A program made the translations under genes and the position numbers. Under the pieces are notes generated by a model. That model had not been told where the DNA came from and did not search any database. It worked only from the letters and a program-made list of their open reading frames with translations. A DNA stretch of 64,000 nt from Escherichia phage vB_EcoM_ESCO47: sequence record OM386662.1. The stretch is one strand, 5' to 3'. Positions 5,636 through 30,442 of the stretch are shown here, piece after piece. The stretch's first letter is position 1. Each line of letters begins with the position of its first letter.

Positions 5636-8600
5636 CTAATTTAACCTGTGGTGGATTCACGGGGTCTCTAGGATTTCCTACATTATCGATTAGTCTTTTC
5701 TCGACTAAATCTCTGAACTGAGCAAACGTAGTACCAGACGCATCGAATAATGGGCTCATCAGTTTACGACGTTCTGATGGTAATTGACCTTGGAAAATGG
5801 AGTTATCATTTTCTGCGTTGTAGTCGGCAGGTAAAGGATATTCCTGTCCAGCCATAGGACCTGCATCATATAATGCTTCGCCTGTAACAGGGTCGTATTC
5901 AACATTACCTTGAGGGTCCAATCTTGCCACCCGGTCAGCGTATTGCGTAGGTAATCCAGAATCCCACTTATAGTTTTTATATTTATTAATTATTGTTTCA
6001 ACATGTTTAAGCGTTAATCCAACGTTAATAAACATTGTCAAAAGAGTTATTGCGATGAAGCCAAATCCAACCGGATGAACAAAACGTAATACGTCAGATT
6101 TCCATCTAGACGAAGGCAGATTTGATTTAATCTTCATTACATAATAAGATCTACCACGATTTATGTAGTCTATATTGTTTTGAGATAATTCTTTACCTTT
6201 GATTCCACGAACGATCATACCGTCAAAGCTCGGAAGTCTTTCCGCTTTAACTTCTTGTCCCTCAATAAGACGACCTAAAAGGTTATGAATCGTTACAGTC
6301 CACTGCAATTTACCCTTAGAGTAGCTTCTTTCTAAATAAGTAACATTACAACGTCCTGTGGCCGTGAATATTGTCTGTCCTACTAAATCTTCTGTAATAG
6401 TGTCAGACTCAACAACAATATCATACTCGGTCCCAGAAGACGATTCTATTTCGACTTCAACGTCTTCATTATACAAAACTTTAAACAAGAATTTATATGA
6501 CGCTTCAGTTCCTTTTGTCGAATAGAAATCATAACTTCTTGACTCAAAGAATCGAGCCACCAAATCACGCTTTTCAGCATTAAGGTAAATATTTCGCTTA
6601 TAAATCTCAGACCATAAGTATTCCCATGCGTGTTCTTCACGTGGATACTGGTTTTTAATAAGATTTAACAGGTTGTTATAGTGGGTCCCATATCCATCTG
6701 ATAAGTATTGGATATATGCTTCACAGAACGCTTCAAAGTTTGAATTATCTAGCAAATACGATTCTGGCATCATAGTCGTGATCAAAGGACGTAAATCCGG
6801 ATCTGCAATACCGTTCTCTTCAACAGGATTCCATGGAGTTTCTCTTTCCTGATTTTGTAAAAATGCCAGTAAGAACGTTTCGGTAGGTTTCCAAATAATG
6901 GAAACGTTATCTCTTACACGATAACTAAAGTCGTAATAGGAAATAATCTCACCTGATGATTTATAGAAAATCATACCGGATGCATATTTTTTAAAGCCGG
7001 TGAAATCAATATTAGGCATAACGATAGTACAATCGCCATCATTCCAATATTCGTGTACTTTTCTATCCGGAGAAGACGCTGGTAAGTTTTCAACGGCCTT
7101 TGTATATAACAACTCAGAATAAATGACAACAGCCCTATCTGAGTTATTAATCCAACAACGGGTGTCAGACTTTCTTGAATAGTTAAAGAAAGGTTCTGCA
7201 TAGTATTTCATAGGTTGCGGACTAAATGATTCCCAACCGGACTCTTCTGTTGAAATGAATGCCATCATATGGTAATGCTTATCAGCAAGCCATTCTCGCG
7301 GGTATTCATATTTTACTGCGCCAAGAAGACCGTACTTTATTTGGGTGACCGGGTCATTAACAATATCAGATTCCAAGAATTTAAAATTGCTTGACGAAAT
7401 AAAGAGTTCGGTGCCATCTGTGGACATACTGGTGAATGCAGGTTCAATACGACGACGTTCTTCTTCAGTATTACCAAAGACTCTAGTAAATGTACCTGTG
7501 GAGTGGTCTAGTACGTAAACTCCTTTATCAACAGAATCAAGAATAGGATTTGTTCTAGGGTCGTCATTCACATTAGCAACTTCGCCAATAATCAATGCAA
7601 ACACCTTACCACCGATAGAATCCATTTTATAACAAACAGCTTTAGGATTACCTGTAATATTAAATGTTTCCGGCTCGAACAAACGCTCAGAATATGTCGG
7701 AGACAATGGGTCTGAATCAATAGGAGCATTACTCGTTCTAATAAAGCGAACTTTATCTCGAGCAGCAACATATACATAATCGTCGTTACAAACAATAGCT
7801 TCTGCGACACGAGATACGTTTGCAGGTAACGATGCATAGTTACCGAAGATTTCTACGTCAAAACCTAAATTCAATTGGTCGCCAATTTTAGCAAATGTTA
7901 CGTCTTGAGAACTAAATCGAACGTCATCAGACGACCAACGAACATCCGTCGATTTACGTCCATAAAATACTTTATCATAGCCGAGAACATAAGTTGTGTA
8001 ATCAGATTGATAATAAACTGTGCGAGATAATGGATATCCCACGCGGTCATTAAACAATTTAACGGCTTTCCATGTTTGGCCTTTGTCATTAGATACTTTA
8101 ACCACAGGCTGATAACGTTCAAACAAGTAAAGAATACCTTCAGATTCCATCAAATAAACACGATTAATATCTCGACAAACATGTTTAATGGACCCTTGAA
8201 TTTCATGGTACTCATTTTCACCAACGATAAAGTTTCTAATGGATGAAATATCAGCATAAGCCGGACTGAATTGGAACGATTCGTTCATCAATGCGGCCAT
8301 GATAGTGTCGTTATTAAAATCGACATAGGCATGGTTATTATTTGTAAATTTTTCACGAATAAAACTATTTGCCAACTGCATTTCAATCATATTTTGAAAT
8401 GTATAAGCGTTGGTTTGAAACGTTTCAAAAATTTCTGTTTGAACCCAGTCAGATTGAGTAAATCCTTCTGCTGCTGTTGCTACACGCATAGTATAAGACG
8501 TTAACGGGTCCAAGCCACTTTCAAAGTAGTTACTATTTGCTGTGTAGCCTAAATTAATCCAACGATAACTAGACTGGGGAATATCCTCCCCAGCGGCTGT

Positions 8601-19418: not shown

Positions 19419-19493
19419 GGCCCTTTAGCTCAATGGGAGAGCTGTCAGCTCATAACTGATAGGTAGCTGGATCGAAACCAGCAAGGGTCACCA
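19419..19493 (+). tRNA. tRNA with CAU anticodon (Met or lysidine-modified Ile)
   Basis: Manual cloverleaf: acceptor GGCCCTT/AAGGGTC, D-arm GCTC..GAGC, anticodon loop CTCATAA, T-stem GCTGG/CCAGC, 3' CCA encoded. Confidence 0.75.
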
Positions 19494-19497
19494 ATTT

Positions 19498-19569
19498 GGA
19501 TGCATAGCTCAGTGGTAGAGCAGTTGACTGTTAATCAATTGGTCCATGGTTCGAATCCATGTGTGTCCG
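19498..19569 (+). tRNA. tRNA-Asn (GUU anticodon)
   Basis: Manual cloverleaf: D-loop AGTGGTA, anticodon loop CTGTTAA, T-arm CATGG-TTCGAAT-CCATG; acceptor with G-U pairs; no encoded CCA. Confidence 0.7.
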
Positions 19570-19576
19570 CAAATTA

Positions 19577-19652
19577 CGAGGCATAGCTCAGAAGGAAGAG
19601 CAAGGACCTTCTAAGTCCTAGGTCGTAGGTTCGATCCCTACTGTCTCGACCA
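19577..19652 (+). tRNA. tRNA-Arg (UCU anticodon)
   Basis: Manual cloverleaf: acceptor CGAGGCA/TGTCTCG, anticodon loop CTTCTAA, T-loop TTCGATC, CCA encoded; T4 also carries tRNA-Arg(UCU). Confidence 0.75.
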
Positions 19653-19813
19653 AACAAGAAACCGGGTCGCTACCGGCAAGTCGTCGGACTGATGTTCCCT
19701 GTTTAAGGACTGGCATTAACAAATCTTTATGTTTTGTTAATGCCCCCTTACATCACAACAGAAACGGCGCATTGAACACTTACCTAGTAGGTGGAAACCC
19801 CGACAAGGTATAT
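19653..19813 (+). ncRNA. Candidate small structured RNA downstream of tRNA cluster
   Basis: Non-coding stretch with perfect 12-bp hairpin (19712-19744) ending at intrinsic terminator; T4 encodes small stable RNAs at the equivalent position. Confidence 0.3.
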
Positions 19814-26865: not shown

Positions 26866-27098
26866 GTATAGCAATTTACATTAAGTCAGAATCATGTGAT
26901 AGTTATCTGTACACATACGATAAAGATGTGTCAGAAGAAAAAATCAAAGACGACCTTAATATGGACCTTGATATGTTCTGTCCTATTGCAGATTACAAAC
27001 TTGCGGTCTCTAATAGTGAAAGTCCATCTAAAGAAACGCGCATTGAAGAATTTATGTCCGAATTAATGGCCAAATCATGGAACAGAGATGATGAGTAA
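26862..27098 (+). CDS. Hypothetical protein
   Basis: ATGA-coupled start at MSIAIYIKSE. Confidence 0.45.
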   Translation: MSIAIYIKSESCDSYLYTYDKDVSEEKIKDDLNMDLDMFCPIADYKLAVSNSESPSKETRIEEFMSELMAKSWNRDDE

Positions 27099-27546
27099 GA
27101 AAAATAAAGTGAAAGAGCTATCAGCCGGTATTATTTTCCTTACCGAAGATAAAGAGTTATTCATGGGGCGTGTAACTGGTTCTCGTCCTAAAGGTGCATT
27201 AGCTCATCGGTGGGATATTCCTAAAGGCCGTGTCGAACCTGGCGAATCTCCTATTGAAGCCGCTATTCGTGAATGCGAAGAAGAAACTGGGTTTACACAG
27301 TATGATCCGGCCTTCCTGAAAGATCTAGGTGAACATCGATACTCAGATAATAAGAATATTCATCTGTTCTATTATACGATCCCTGTAGAGCACGAGCAAT
27401 TCAGACACAGTGTTTGTAGTGCTTATCATACATTCCCTGATGGAACTTCTATCCCAGAATTTGATGCATTTGCACTAATTAAACCGAGTCAATGGGAATA
27501 TGTAATGGGTAAATCTTTATATAAGGTGCTCACTGCCATTCTGTAA
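27088..27546 (+). CDS. nudE: Nudix hydrolase NudE
   Basis: Nudix box GESPIEAAIRECEEETGF; immediately upstream of e as in T4 (e.1). Confidence 0.85.
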   Translation: MMSKKNKVKELSAGIIFLTEDKELFMGRVTGSRPKGALAHRWDIPKGRVEPGESPIEAAIRECEEETGFTQYDPAFLKDLGEHRYSDNKNIHLFYYTIPVEHEQFRHSVCSAYHTFPDGTSIPEFDAFALIKPSQWEYVMGKSLYKVLTAIL

Positions 27547-27553
27547 TTAATAA

Positions 27554-27580
27554 ATACCTCCTATAAACGTGGGAGGTATT
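27554..27580 (+). promoter_or_regulatory. RBS-sequestering hairpin with embedded late-promoter-like box upstream of lysozyme e
   Basis: Perfect 8-bp stem ATACCTCC / GGAGGTAT; 3' arm contains the SD GGAGG; loop TATAAACGTG. Confidence 0.65.
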
Positions 27581-28075
27581 ATGAATATATTTGAAATGCT
27601 TCGTAATGACGAAGGTCTTAGACTGTCTTTATACAAAGACACTGAAGGCTTTTGGACGATTGGCATAGGCCATTTAGTAACAAAGAACCCGTCTTTAGCC
27701 GTAGCTAAAGCTGAACTTGACCGAATGATAGGTCGTAAATGCAACGGTACAATTACACTTGATGAGGCTGAAAAGCTATTTAATGAAGACGTTGATAAAG
27801 CCGTTCGCGGAATCTTGGGTAATGCTAAACTAAAACTGGTTTATGATTCTTTAGATGCGGTGAGACGTTGTGCATTAATAAATATGGTCTTCCAAATGGG
27901 TGTAGCAGGCGTCGCAGGTTTTACTAATTCTCTTCGTATGCTTCAGCAGAAACGTTGGGATGAGGCAGCAGTAAACCTTGCCCAGAGCAAGTGGTACCGT
28001 CAGACGCCTAATCGCGCAAAACGTGTGATTGCTACCTTTAAAACTGGTACATGGACCGCGTATAAAAATCTATAA
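27581..28075 (+). CDS. e: Endolysin (T4 lysozyme, gene e)
   Basis: [32 protein letters not shown]... near-identical to recalled T4 lysozyme; start set at MNIF (ORF-track start 27569 upstream). Confidence 0.95.
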
Positions 28076-28115: not shown

Positions 28116-28193
28116 AGTTACTTGAACAGACAAATCACTAATTAAAATATTTACATTTAGAACTCATATGAAAACATATAAAGAATTTATCGC
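28116..28193 (+). repeat. 78-bp direct repeat (leader and CTS codons), copy 1
   Basis: Matches 28602-28679 with one mismatch. Confidence 0.8.
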
Positions 28194-28566
28194 AGAGAAT
28201 GTAATTCCTGCATCTAAAGAACTTTTGGTGACGTTTGAATCCGAAGAGTTCACCGAAGAACTGAATGAGAACCTGACTACTGCCACACCTCAGGTTATCC
28301 GTGTTCGTAACGCCCTGCAGTCAGGCATGCCGGCCGGTGTCTCTAAGACCATGAAGTTGGCATTCACTACTTCTAATAACGAAGACTTTGGCAACGGTAT
28401 CGCTATGAACACTGGGCAGTATTATGTTGAGTGGAACGGTGAAACCGGCACGGCTAAGATTCGTCAGACACGTGCCGCTGGTGGCAAAATGCTGGACGTT
28501 AAACTAAACGTTAAAGAGAAAGACGTTGTAGCTCTGTTCAAGAACTGGATGAAATCTTACAAATAA
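28168..28566 (+). CDS. Internal head protein (IpIII-like position) with capsid targeting sequence
   Basis: N-terminus MKTYKEFIAEN; position after e as T4 ipIII. Confidence 0.65.
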   Translation: MKTYKEFIAENVIPASKELLVTFESEEFTEELNENLTTATPQVIRVRNALQSGMPAGVSKTMKLAFTTSNNEDFGNGIAMNTGQYYVEWNGETGTAKIRQTRAAGGKMLDVKLNVKEKDVVALFKNWMKSYK

Positions 28567-28601: not shown

Positions 28602-28679
28602 AGTTACTTGAACAGACAAATCACTAATTAAAATATTTACATTTAGGACTCATATGAAAACATATAAAGAATTTATCGC
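28602..28679 (+). repeat. 78-bp direct repeat, copy 2
   Basis: Matches 28116-28193 with one mismatch. Confidence 0.8.
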
Positions 28680-29229
28680 TGAAGCTTCTGTAGCAAAAGC
28701 CCAAGGCATTAATAAAGACGAGTGGACTTACCGCGGAAATGGCTTTGACCCTAAAACAGCTCCTATCGAACGGTACTTAGCTACAAAGGCTTCCGACTTT
28801 AAAGCCTTCGCTTGGGAAGGACTTCGCTGGCGTAACGATCTAAATATTGAAGTTGACGGACTTAAATTTGCCCATATTCAAGATGTTGTTGCTAGTAACT
28901 TGGACGCAGCTTTTGTTAAAGCTGACGGTGACCTTCGTCGCTGGAATTTAAAACTATTCTCTAAACAGAAAGGTCCGGTGTTTGTGCCTAAAGCTGGTAA
29001 ATGGGTTATTGATAATAAATTAGCTAAGGCTGTCAACTACGCTGGTCTTGAATTCGCCAAGCATAAATCAAGATGGAAAGGTCTTGATGCAATGGACTTC
29101 CGTAAAGAATTTGCCGATGTTATGACTAAAGGCGGCTTTAAGGCAGAAATAGATACCTCTAAAGGTATGTTTAAAGACGCTAATATTCAGTACGCGTATG
29201 CTGTTGCTAATGCAGCCCGTGGTAATTAA
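28654..29229 (+). CDS. Internal head protein (IpII/IpIII-like) with capsid targeting sequence
   Basis: N-terminus MKTYKEFIAEA; 78-bp leader repeat shared with previous gene. Confidence 0.65.
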   Translation: MKTYKEFIAEASVAKAQGINKDEWTYRGNGFDPKTAPIERYLATKASDFKAFAWEGLRWRNDLNIEVDGLKFAHIQDVVASNLDAAFVKADGDLRRWNLKLFSKQKGPVFVPKAGKWVIDNKLAKAVNYAGLEFAKHKSRWKGLDAMDFRKEFADVMTKGGFKAEIDTSKGMFKDANIQYAYAVANAARGN

Positions 29230-29267: not shown

Positions 29268-29570
29268 ATGAAAACATATCAAGAATTTATTACTGAAGCG
29301 CGAGTGAGTGCAGGTAAATTAGAAGCCGCTATAAATAAAAAGGCCCATTCATTTCATGATTTGTCCGATAAAGACCGTAAGAAACTTGTAAGCCTTTATA
29401 TTGACAAAGAGCGTATTCTCGCTCTTCCTGGCGCTAATGAAGGTAAACAGGCCAAGCCTTTGAATGCTGTCGAAAAGAAAATTGATAACTTTGCTTCTAA
29501 ATTTGGTATGTCTATGGATGACCTTCAGCAAGCGGCTATCGAAGCAGCTAAAGTAATTAAAGGTAAATAA
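29268..29570 (+). CDS. Internal head protein family member with capsid targeting sequence
   Basis: N-terminus MKTYQEFITEA. Confidence 0.65.
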   Translation: MKTYQEFITEARVSAGKLEAAINKKAHSFHDLSDKDRKKLVSLYIDKERILALPGANEGKQAKPLNAVEKKIDNFASKFGMSMDDLQQAAIEAAKVIKGK

Positions 29571-29572
29571 CA

Positions 29573-29606
29573 GTTTACTTTCTCCTAGAATTGTGATATT
29601 ATATTC
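29573..29606 (+). promoter_or_regulatory. T4-type early promoter (upstream of denV remnant)
   Basis: GTTTAC ... TGATATTAT. Confidence 0.5.
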
Positions 29607-29627: not shown

Positions 29628-29756
29628 ATGACTTATATTAATTTGACTTTAGTATCTGAATTTGCTGATCAACATTTAATCGCTGAATATTGTGAATTAC
29701 CATGTGGTTTTGGTGTAATTCGTAAATACGTGGCAAAAATATTTACATTCAAATAA
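29628..29756 (+). pseudogene. denV: denV (endonuclease V, pyrimidine-dimer glycosylase) remnant, truncated after 42 codons
   Basis: [25 protein letters not shown] aligns to recalled T4 Endo[26 protein letters not shown] but Arg3, Arg22, Arg26 are replaced and the frame stops at codon 43. Confidence 0.6.
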
Positions 29757-29902
29757 AATGGGAACAACCTGGACCTCATGATTCTATGAGGGATTCCCGC
29801 CGACCTGTAATAAGGTCGAGCGCAATGCGGTAATGAGTTTACATAGCGAGTCGAAGGACCTAACATGTGCCAAGGAATGGCCCAAACCTAGAGAGAAATA
29901 AT

Positions 29903-30442
29903 ATGAGAACATTTTTAACCGGACCTTATCTATCCCTGATGAATGCTTTTACACACCATTCTGATGCTAGAGTAGAAGAAATTTGTAAGAACGGTTATAT
30001 CCCACCATTTGAAGACGTACTCAAGCAGTACTGTACACTTCGTTTAGACGGTGGCAGACAATCAGGTAAATCAACTGCAGTAACTAATTTTGCCGCTAAT
30101 TGGCTGTACGACGGTGGAACAGTTATTGTTCTTTCTAATACTTCAGCTTATGCTAAAATTTCTGCTGGCAACATTGAAAAAGAATTTTCTCGTTATTCTA
30201 GCGATGATATTCGATTCCGTTTATTTACTGATTCTGTCCGTAGTTTTATTGGCAATGAAGGTTCTAAATTCCGTGGATTAACGCTTTCTCGTATTCTGTA
30301 TATAATTGACGAGCCTATTAAAGCTCCTGATATGGATAAGATTTACAATGCCCATATTAAAACAGTACAGCACTGCTGCAAAAGCAAATATTGCATCGGC
30401 GGTATTGCTCGTCCTCAATTTTTTGTGATAGGAATGCAATGA
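29903..30442 (+). CDS. P-loop NTPase-like hypothetical protein
   Basis: Walker A-like GGRQSGKST; start set at MRTFLTG with AGAGAG RBS. Confidence 0.5.
   Translation: MRTFLTGPYLSLMNAFTHHSDARVEEICKNGYIPPFEDVLKQYCTLRLDGGRQSGKSTAVTNFAANWLYDGGTVIVLSNTSAYAKISAGNIEKEFSRYSSDDIRFRLFTDSVRSFIGNEGSKFRGLTLSRILYIIDEPIKAPDMDKIYNAHIKTVQHCCKSKYCIGGIARPQFFVIGMQ

Follow-up and report, generated by a model that had tools for sequence, protein, structure and literature searches.

Bacteriophage T4 encodes two small, stable, structured non-coding RNAs, RNAC and RNAD (species 1 and species 2), together with its tRNA genes, and the roles of both are still unknown (PMC3014915, PMC9697503). As of a 2010 review, no riboswitch or trans-acting regulatory RNA of T4 had been characterized (PMC3014915). 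Also described from T4-type phages are PeSLs (promoter-early stem-loops), in which a stem-loop is combined with an early promoter of the form TTTACW-N17-TAYWAT (PMC4122927). Here, we report on a locus of Escherichia phage vB_EcoM_ESCO47 (OM386662.1) at which a decayed denV (endonuclease V) gene is followed by a 146-nucleotide (nt) non-coding segment and then by a homolog of the T4 gene vs.8. The analysis covered a stretch of 64,000 nt, called the window throughout, and positions are those of the window unless a locus is named (L and a number). Sequence comparison leads us to propose that the segment contains a pseudoknotted RNA element that is probably an autonomous phage RNA.

The segment (29757 to 29902) is more GC rich, at 0.46 to 0.48, than its flanks, at 0.24 to 0.38, as an earlier note on this DNA had observed. 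That note took it to be a replacement segment, perhaps the remnant of an inserted element or a small RNA. Alignment contradicts a replacement: the 146 nt match, base for base, the sequence that follows an intact denV in T4 and in phage VIPECOOM01, and the segment is therefore native denV-vs.8 sequence. The small RNA came closer, since the segment holds a conserved structured RNA with covariation, but it is one without an Rfam model. None of the 4227 models of Rfam 15 matches 29757 to 29902, even at an E value of ≤10.

Phage records that match the segment number 945 (sensitive blastn, E≤1e-3), with coverage of 80% or more in 555. The element occurs in Tequatrovirus, Mosigvirus, Dhakavirus, Gaprivervirus, Jiaodavirus, Moonvirus, and Roskildevirus, and hosts of the matched phages include Klebsiella, Citrobacter, Erwinia, Enterobacter, and Yersinia (several Tevenvirinae genera). 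The window has one copy, and nearly all of the 945 records match in one place. A blastn search of 5,426 E. coli genomes returned no match, indicating that there is no host copy. An alignment of T4, JS09, RPN187, VIPECOOM01, and SF contains a near-invariant stretch, GGGAACAACCTGGACCTCATGATT.TATGAGGGATTCCCGCC.ACCTGTAATAAGGTCGAGC...GCGGTAATG.GT. Moreover, a 31-nt center is 91 to 97% identical to the window in genera whose vs.8 is only 62 to 65% identical in nucleotides and 41 to 46% in amino acids, and all differences within this center are confined to one small loop. By this comparison, the segment is among the most conserved non-coding sequences of the genome region.

Pattern scans of viral and metagenomic contigs were used to find copies in other lineages, which added rV5-like Vequintavirinae, Klebsiella siphovirus-like contigs of ~47 kb, and contigs of 70 to 117 kb. 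All lineages have in common the core AACCUG(U)AA(U)AAGGUCGAGC-(5-6 nt)-GCGGUAA, and the flanks are wholly different. A pattern scan of bacterial and archaeal genomes returned 120 loci, which were rejected as chance matches because they lie in GC-rich coding sequence and miss the part of the core that forms helix P2 (described below). A single bacterial locus, in Grimontia marina (L106, 1493 to 1536; CCGACCUAACCCAAAGGUCGAGCCGGAGCGGUAAAG), resembles the element beyond the pattern, with 18 bits in a covariance model of the core (R1). It is probably also a chance match, since the locus was picked by the pattern itself.

The surroundings of the element differ between T4-like and other phages. At the T4-like loci examined, it always lies before a vs.8 homolog or an inserted internal-protein (ip) gene, and the upstream gene varies. 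Wherever a non-T4 lineage offers enough flanking sequence, it shares its strand with tRNA genes that lie 10 to 1300 nt away. For instance, it is part of a tRNA array in L175, and four tRNAs immediately precede it in L193; it is 200 to 400 nt upstream of tRNAs in L197, L214, L211, L204, and L163, downstream of them in L199, L206, and L169, and ~550 nt upstream of tRNA-Arg in the rV5-like loci. Two near-consensus sigma-70 promoters (17 to 45 and 222 to 250) bracket the element in the rV5-like L033, which indicates a promoter of its own. Locus L206 (7566 to 8061) reads tRNA-Pro, element, strong intrinsic terminator (7999 to 8026), and an open reading frame (ORF) of 629 amino acids (aa), and is the best example of the element standing last in a non-coding transcription unit. 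No protein neighbor is shared across the lineages searched, and no vs.8 homolog lies nearby outside T4-like phages. Taken together, the tRNA context, the promoter or terminator of its own, and the lack of a common neighbor favor an autonomous RNA over a regulator dedicated to vs.8, and comparison across lineages thereby establishes that the predicted element is independent of its neighboring genes.

In these respects, the element resembles T4 RNAC and RNAD, which are likewise phage encoded, non-coding, structured, and found with phage tRNA genes, as the element is, on the same strand, outside T4-like phages. Unlike them, it lies ~5 to 10 kb from the tRNA cluster in T4-like phages, inside an early operon. 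A direct relation to rnaC or rnaD was rejected: short strings are shared with rnaD, but R1 gives no hit on either gene with filters off.

Repeats of other kinds occur near the element in some lineages. In rV5-like loci (L033, 50 to 220; also L010 and L205), two copies of a hairpin motif, CCC(U/A)UAGAGGGCUUGA(U/A)AGUGC, bracket it and could be a processing signal; the first bases of this motif appear to resemble those with which the type I-E CRISPR repeat of E. coli begins. A group I intron (RF00028, 81 bits) lies ~3 kb downstream of the element in L033 (3115 to 3418). In the ~47-kb Klebsiella siphovirus-like phages, the stretch that separates the major tail gene from the tRNA genes carries long hairpins with imperfect pairing, CACAACAGGUAAGAGCA...UGCUCUUUCCGUUGUG, in arrays (L163, reverse, 1370 to 2060; L181; L190; and L195, which is KlebP_265, 830 to 1300). 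These hairpins bracket variable inserts, of which the element is one, absent from KlebP_265, and another has GGUUUACAUAGUG in common with the tail of the type B element of T4-like phages, a form with a longer 5' domain.

Comparative analysis supports a predicted fold in which a 5' hairpin domain is followed by a three-way junction and tied to the sequence behind it by a pseudoknot helix, PK (Table 1). The junction is closed by Px, which takes the forms GCCA/U-G-GGU, ACUA/U-G-AGU, GCAA/U-G-UGU, AGCA/U-G-GCC, CCCU/G-G-GGU, and UGGU/A-G-CCA, with the bulged G conserved and double changes in four of four pairs. Pair 6:42 forms in each of the 51 distinct sequences, by six pair types in all. P2 (ACCU/AGGU, loop GUAAUA) and P3 (GC/GC) are almost invariant, and the third pair of P3 can be C:G, G:U, G:C, or A:U. 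The earlier note had pointed to a CGACC/GGTCG hairpin, which is present at 29801 to 29818 and whose inner four pairs are P2, and to a CCTCAT/ATGAGG hairpin, which is present at 29774 to 29791 and is kept in relatives with compensatory changes.

Directly 5' of Px is P1, a helix of 4 to 7 bp whose sequence differs widely between lineages: GGGAA/UUCCC, GGGAG/CUCCC, GGGG/CCCC, GGAAC/GUUCC, UGAGG/CCUCA, GAGUG/CACUC, GUGUAU/AUACAC, AAAGG/CCUUU, AAAGCUA/UAGCUUU, and GCUGCA/UGCAGC. Within alignable subgroups, the changes are compensatory, as exemplified by pair 10:57 of type B (GC, CG, or AU) and by an A:U pair of T4 that is G:C in L030. Variants of the 5' domain include P1 as GGGAG/CUCCC together with P1a as CCUCA/UGAGG in L030, and P1a as CCUUAU/AUAAGG in L179. 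PK joins the internal loop of the P1 domain to a tail 1 to 8 nt after Px. At aligned positions in T4-like phages, it reads CCG:CGG, CAC:GUG, CGC:GCG, or CUG:CAG, the last in L219-type and T4-type copies, and other lineages have CCAG:CUGG, GAGG:CCUC, CGG:CCG, and CCC:GGG. Locus L206 was examined after the model had been fixed and so serves as an out-of-sample case; it has P1 as GCUGCA/UGCAGC and PK as AAACCA:UGGUUU.

Counts over the alignments agree with this fold. In the core alignment (A6, the 51 distinct sequences), 95.1% of cells are paired, compared with 23 to 47% in slid controls, compensatory changes occur in 6 of 10 pairs, and none of 500 shuffles reaches the observed values on any of five measures, including two with low false-positive rates. 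In the type B alignment (A3), 98.8% of cells are paired (slid controls, 21 to 45%), none of 500 shuffles reaches the covariation score or the percentage paired, and compensatory changes are found in P1, the 5' domain, and PK. The terminal hairpin lacks covariation, as three of its four pairs never vary and one cell is unpaired. G-U pairs occur in several helices and are tolerated on the + strand only; on the other strand they would be C-A, so the + strand is the functional one. By these comparisons, both the predicted pseudoknotted fold and its conservation are established.

Table 1. Coordinates of the features of the denV-vs.8 locus in the window
Feature	Position	Strand	Remarks
nudE	27088-27546	+	
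e lysozyme	27569-28075	+	
Three internal-protein genes	28168-28566, 28654-29229, 29268-29570	+	
Early-type promoter-like site	29574-29602	+	TTTACT-17-TATTAT, TG-extended; 9/12 matches; 5' of denV remnant
denV pseudogene remnant	29628-29756	+	36 DenV-like residues, then 6 out-of-frame residues and stop
Deletion junction GGCAAA	29732-29737	+	Two GGCAAA direct repeats of the intact gene bound the 292-nt out-of-frame deletion
denV-vs.8 intergenic segment	29757-29902	+	Conserved structured RNA element and vs.8 ribosome-binding region
5' hairpin domain	29760-29798	+	P1, PK 5' strand, P1a
P1	29760-29764 with 29794-29798	+	GGGAA with UUCCC
PK 5' strand	29769-29771	+	CUG
P1a	29774-29779 with 29786-29791	+	CCUCAU with AUGAGG
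Invariant core, three-way junction	29797-29840	+	R1 covariance model and covariation counts
Px	29799-29802 with 29834, 29836-29838	+	G29835 bulged, C29801.A29836 mismatch
P2	29803-29806 with 29813-29816	+	Loop GUAAUA
J2/3	29817-29819	+	CGA
P3	29820-29822 with 29826-29828	+	
J3/x	29829-29833	+	GGUAA
Type-B-kind 3' tail	29838-29868	+	PK 3' strand by homology GCG 29846-29848
Weak promoter-like site	29838-29866	+	TTTACA-17-TAACAT; 9/12; overlaps tail
Terminal hairpin	29869-29881	+	GCCA-AGGAA-UGGC; T4-like phages only; sequence kept
vs.8 homolog	29903-30442	+	179 aa, P-loop-like; first gene 3' of element; vs.7 homolog next

A known RNA fold with the same helix order is that of the ribozymes like the hepatitis delta virus (HDV) ribozyme. 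Their helix order is a b c c' a' d d' b' (a, P1; b, PK strand; c, hairpin; d, closing domain), and the element runs through the same nested double-pseudoknot order, namely P1, PK 5' strand, P1a hairpin, P1 3' strand, Px domain, and PK 3' strand. Theta ribozymes occur next to phage tRNA genes. The differences are nevertheless substantial: P1 of the element opens with G-C, A-U, or U-A and not with G.U, the joiner is 1 to 8 nt long and variable (U, A, AUAG, UACA, AAAUA, or UUUACAUN) and has no conserved C, P3 is not directly continuous with P1, and the conserved nucleotides of the element fall in the domain that matches the dispensable P4. An HDV-like ribozyme was therefore rejected, as the closing G.U and the catalytic C are absent and conservation lies in a domain that can be lost. 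Moreover, no self-cleaving ribozyme family in Rfam matches the element loci. Over the element in seven loci of other lineages (rV5-like, 47-kb, and others), Rfam searches at E≤0.1 gave chance-level hits and tRNAs only.

Other candidates fared no better. The 5' domain of type B contains CUGAGUGA and GAAC, as in a hammerhead, but its consensus fold is a single interrupted hairpin with no three-way junction. Mimicry of the tRNA-Tyr anticodon loop (CUGUAAU) was dismissed because the C and U of this string take part in P2 and the loop is not constant (GCAACA, GUAAAA), and neither ARAGORN nor Rfam detects a tRNA on the element in the window or at the other loci. No terminator-like site was found in 29757 to 29902. 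A lead comes from P3 and J3/x (GC-loop-GC-GGUAAU), the pattern of which is, we assume, that of G521 to U534 in the 530 loop (helix 18) of E. coli 16S rRNA. It is a lead only, as 8-nt identities to rRNA are expected by chance at an estimated ~2 to 3 matches per 45-nt motif.

The copy in the window is a recombinant. R1 finds it as the only match in the window, with 56.2 bits and an E value of 5e-16. No complete first copy among T4's closest relatives scores below this; copies from distant T4-like lineages score 38 to 53 bits, and most other copies score 59 to 72 bits. Its 5' domain is of T4 type, and from P3 onward it has the tail found with the type B 5' domain (copy 2 of SF), an arrangement also seen in RPN187 and vB_EQ1, with the crossover inside the conserved core. 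A change unique to the window, A to G at 29802, still allows a G:U pair and extends P2 into the longer hairpin of the earlier note. Phage SF (L003) has two copies, at 1987 to 2031 and 2483 to 2526, that flank an inserted ip-like gene, and tandem copies ~114 nt apart occur in L209 (5094 to 5249) and L212 (9022 to 9178), the second being degenerate (38 to 48 bits). The double copies, tandems, and chimeras together show that the conserved core is also a recombination point.

We propose that a dead denV lies beside an undescribed, autonomous phage non-coding RNA that probably acts in trans by binding a conserved host or phage factor, a reading to which we assign a probability of roughly 0.55. The element would be an RNA module in its own right and not part of a particular gene. 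It would be transcribed with its neighbors, which in other lineages are tRNA genes, and would fold into a compact pseudoknotted particle. Its invariant unpaired nucleotides (CGA, GGUAA, the bulged G, and the GUAAUA loop) would then contact the putative factor, candidates for which are a small ligand and a protein or RNA from the machinery for translation or RNA processing in enterobacteria. More tentatively, and with the odds against it, the element may be a new class of RNA that is shared by T4-like, rV5-like, T1-like, and other coliphages and Klebsiella phages, goes with tRNA genes, and acts in trans via its junction. Jointly with this broader reading, and just as speculatively, it might serve as a decoy or mimic in translation or RNA processing, as a counter to RNA-targeting defense, or as a sensor of a small molecule.

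Several observations weigh against the proposal of an autonomous RNA. The constant position directly upstream of vs.8 or an inserted ip gene in T4-like phages also fits a cis-acting leader. The single sequence folds only slightly better than shuffles do (+ strand, z = -1.9; - strand, z = -0.8), and with such a weak energy signal the evidence for the structure is comparative and not energetic. The helices are short (2 to 7 bp), P2 and P3 are invariant and thus carry no covariation information, and A6 was fitted to the model, although the core is ungapped outside one loop. Shuffle tests of P1 per lineage are weak with Watson-Crick pairs only (P = 0.007 to 0.4) and uninformative with G-U allowed, so P1 rests mainly on the compensatory changes in alignable subgroups; because MAFFT misaligns the P1 5' strands across lineages, P1 and PK cannot be evaluated across lineages by pair counting. 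The window copy raises doubts of its own. As a consequence of its recombinant origin, the PK strands CUG (29769 to 29771) and GCG (29846 to 29848) are not complementary in the homologous register, with a shifted CUG:UAG pairing possible (UAG, 29844 to 29846), and G to A at 29836, also unique to the window, produces the C.A mismatch in Px. The mismatch and the non-complementary PK make function in this phage less certain; the copy may be partly impaired, or PK may be tolerant of such changes.

The element could instead be a 5' leader that acts in cis, either riboswitch-like or as a protein-binding operator, on vs.8 and the downstream vs genes, which we consider unlikely but worth serious attention. 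It occupies the interval from the upstream stop codon to the vs.8 or ip start at all T4-like loci examined, and the terminal hairpin specific to these phages lies 8 to 20 nt before the Shine-Dalgarno sequence. Like the autoregulatory pseudoknot of T4 gene 32 and like riboswitch aptamers, it places a pseudoknot and invariant, aptamer-like unpaired junction bases upstream of a gene. The vs.8 operon also includes vs.4, presumably a cyclic-nucleotide sponge. Folding of the junction and PK would set access to the vs.8 ribosome-binding site, a detail that we think equally unlikely. Unlike those cis-regulatory RNAs, the element has no known partner protein or ligand and loses its tie to a particular downstream gene outside T4-like phages, where it is found inside tRNA arrays (L175, L193) with no vs.8 homolog near, or has a promoter (L033) or terminator (L206) between it and the following protein gene. 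Also, no conserved alternative pairing with a terminator or with the Shine-Dalgarno sequence was found, and the terminal hairpin shows no covariation.

An improbable alternative is a module for RNA processing or stability, whose pseudoknot would stop exonucleases or direct endonucleolytic cuts and thereby set transcript ends. Processing is intense at cistron boundaries and in tRNA arrays, and the position of the element there agrees with such a role, as do its place among long hairpins resembling processing sites in the ~47-kb Klebsiella phages and the upstream stop codon that abuts P1. A mere roadblock, on the other hand, needs no ~25 invariant unpaired nucleotides, and the element matches no known self-cleaving family and lacks the defining features of HDV-like ribozymes.

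Still harder to accept is that selection acts on DNA, with a PeSL-like cassette of stem-loop and early promoter serving as a recombination substrate that shuffles ip and accessory genes. The element does share with PeSLs the character of a conserved intergenic block in a hyperplastic region with gene shuffling, as evidenced by the SF copies around an ip-like gene and the chimeras in the window, RPN187, and vB_EQ1. Some element subtypes have a TTTACA box, which in the window tail forms TTTACA-17-TAACAT. Unlike PeSLs, which occur in many copies per genome and flank variable ORFs, the element is single copy in nearly all records. Its -10 hexamer is not conserved and differs per subtype, and T4 itself lacks the -35 box. 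It is also ~100 to 145 nt long, contains a pseudoknot and three-way junction supported by covariation, and is present in unrelated phage families. The covariation that preserves PK and the G-U pairs on one strand point to selection on RNA, and the recombination seen there more likely follows from the conservation of the element.

A coding role for the segment, as an N-terminal extension of vs.8 or a small ORF on either strand, is scarcely credible. In T4, the element lies on the minus strand at about 64,790 to 64,940 of NC_000866, with its core at 64,857 to 64,901. The T4 reference (NC_000866, 64,253 to 64,912; L004, 1754 to 2413, minus) annotates vs.8 with 219 aa from an AUG inside hairpin P1a, an extension that corresponds to 29786 to 29902 in the window, and one frame is open across the segment in some copies. 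That frame stops after 15 codons in the window and is closed in most relatives, the open frame differs among copies, and close relatives differ by 1-nt and 4-nt indels (loop lengths) inside the segment. Moreover, the PHROG 1488 profile of the vs.8 family comprises 177 aa and begins at the downstream ATG, and a newer T4 record leaves the region unannotated. The profile length and the closed frame indicate that the T4 vs.8 start is over-extended by ~40 codons and masks the RNA element. Equally far-fetched is decaying junk or the remnant of an insertion that replaced the 3' part of denV, as the higher GC content might suggest, given that the segment follows intact denV in the T4 alignment and is more conserved than the neighboring genes and that the deletion endpoints lie inside denV.

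The denV gene upstream of the element is clearly decayed. The remnant ORF runs from an ATG at 29628 to a TAA at 29754 to 29756 and encodes 42 aa, whose N-terminal similarity to DenV, recognized in the earlier note over 25 residues, is real and extends over 36. In tblastn searches with DenV of T4, JS09, and VIPECOOM01, the sole match in the whole window is 29628 to 29735 (36 aa, 75 to 78% identity; E = 4e-13 to 5e-14), and residues 1 to 37 of the 139-position PHROG 1183 (endonuclease V) profile are matched at an E value of 4e-10. Full-length DenV has ~138 aa and a complete glycosylase fold; here only residues 1 to 36 are left. Thr2 and Glu23 of DenV are catalytic, and Arg3, Arg22, and Arg26 bind DNA. 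Both catalytic residues are retained in the remnant, and the Arg3-to-Tyr and Arg22-to-Cys changes had been read correctly; Arg26 is replaced by Cys, and the Gly that had been assigned to it replaces Val27. With the intact VIPECOOM01 gene as the reference, the deletion removed residues 37 to 138, and its Shine-Dalgarno sequence is now GGGTGGG, a decayed form of GGAGAGG. No sequence for residues 37 to 138 is present anywhere in the 64-kb window, and full-length DenV therefore cannot be restored by frameshifting or splicing.

Related phages reveal that such losses have recurred. JS09 has the identical deletion junction, annotated there as "DenV" of 45 aa and referred to a phage Pol entry of 1994, so that the window allele is shown by comparison to be an old pseudogene already in databases. 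In RPN187 (L005, 3428 to 3450) and SF, the denV at the T4 position was lost by a different, independent deletion at an ACTCG repeat. The differing junctions indicate that this gene was lost repeatedly, in at least two independent events among Mosigvirus-like phages. Both deletions occurred between short direct repeats and left in place the promoter and start codon as well as the RNA element that follows. RB69-type Mosigviruses have a second, intact denV between the e and ip genes, as does JS09, and no second denV-like sequence was found in the 64 kb of the window, including that position. Loss of the repair of ultraviolet-induced dimers, as stated in the earlier note, is hence plausible for this phage, on a window that represents 64 kb of a ~168-kb genome.

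The window derives from a T4-type myovirus whose nearest relatives are Mosigvirus (RB69-like) phages, at ~92 to 96% identity, and its genes follow the T4 order e - ipIII - ipII - denV - vs.8. The vs.8 homolog matches positions 2 to 177 of the 177-position PHROG 1488 profile (E = 2e-78) and, weakly, AAA_14. The early-type promoter-like site at 29574 would, judged by its sequence, drive the denV remnant, the RNA element, and vs.8; a block upstream of denV, CAGTTTAC...TATA, is kept in T4, JS09, RPN187, SF, and VIPECOOM01. The three consecutive internal-protein genes have in common an N-terminal targeting motif, MKTY(K/Q)EFI(A/T)E. The first encodes 132 aa (PHROG 15461), and this gene and an ipIII-like gene stand where RB69-type phages have an internal head protein, the intact denV, ORF125c, and Ip10. 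ARAGORN detects three tRNA genes in the window, at 19419 to 19652. These are tRNA-Met, -Asn, and -Arg (the last at 19577 to 19652) and are followed on the + strand by a homolog of T4 rnaD (19657 to 19771), which encodes species 2 RNA, and no rnaC homolog was found within the 64 kb.

No description of the element was found in the literature on vs.8 and denV, on T4 small RNAs, or on phage structured RNAs, with a listing in one catalog of viral RNAs still possible, and a 2022 dual-omics paper on T4 does not mention it (PMC9697503). That catalog holds 10,006 candidates, 8,495 of which come from IMG/VR, and the element may be listed without comment among the latter (PMC10690425). We therefore file the element as a new family within the phage-encoded structured non-coding RNAs, next to a denV remnant that was already known.

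For annotation, our results mean that the vs.8 start in T4-type genomes needs correction and that the "denV" calls of 42 to 45 aa in Mosigvirus genomes are pseudogenes. The element is also a recombination hot spot that shapes the internal-protein locus. More broadly, T4, among the best-studied of genomes, appears to hold a deeply conserved, unannotated pseudoknotted RNA that is constrained beyond its neighboring genes and that, in unrelated phage families, resembles a small RNA gene beside tRNAs, which raises the questions of whether it is a third orphan structured RNA in T4, what its binding partner might be, and whether phage tRNA islands hold more functional RNAs. If the element is indeed a new class of RNA, it would be the first RNA species of new function to come to light in T4 for decades.

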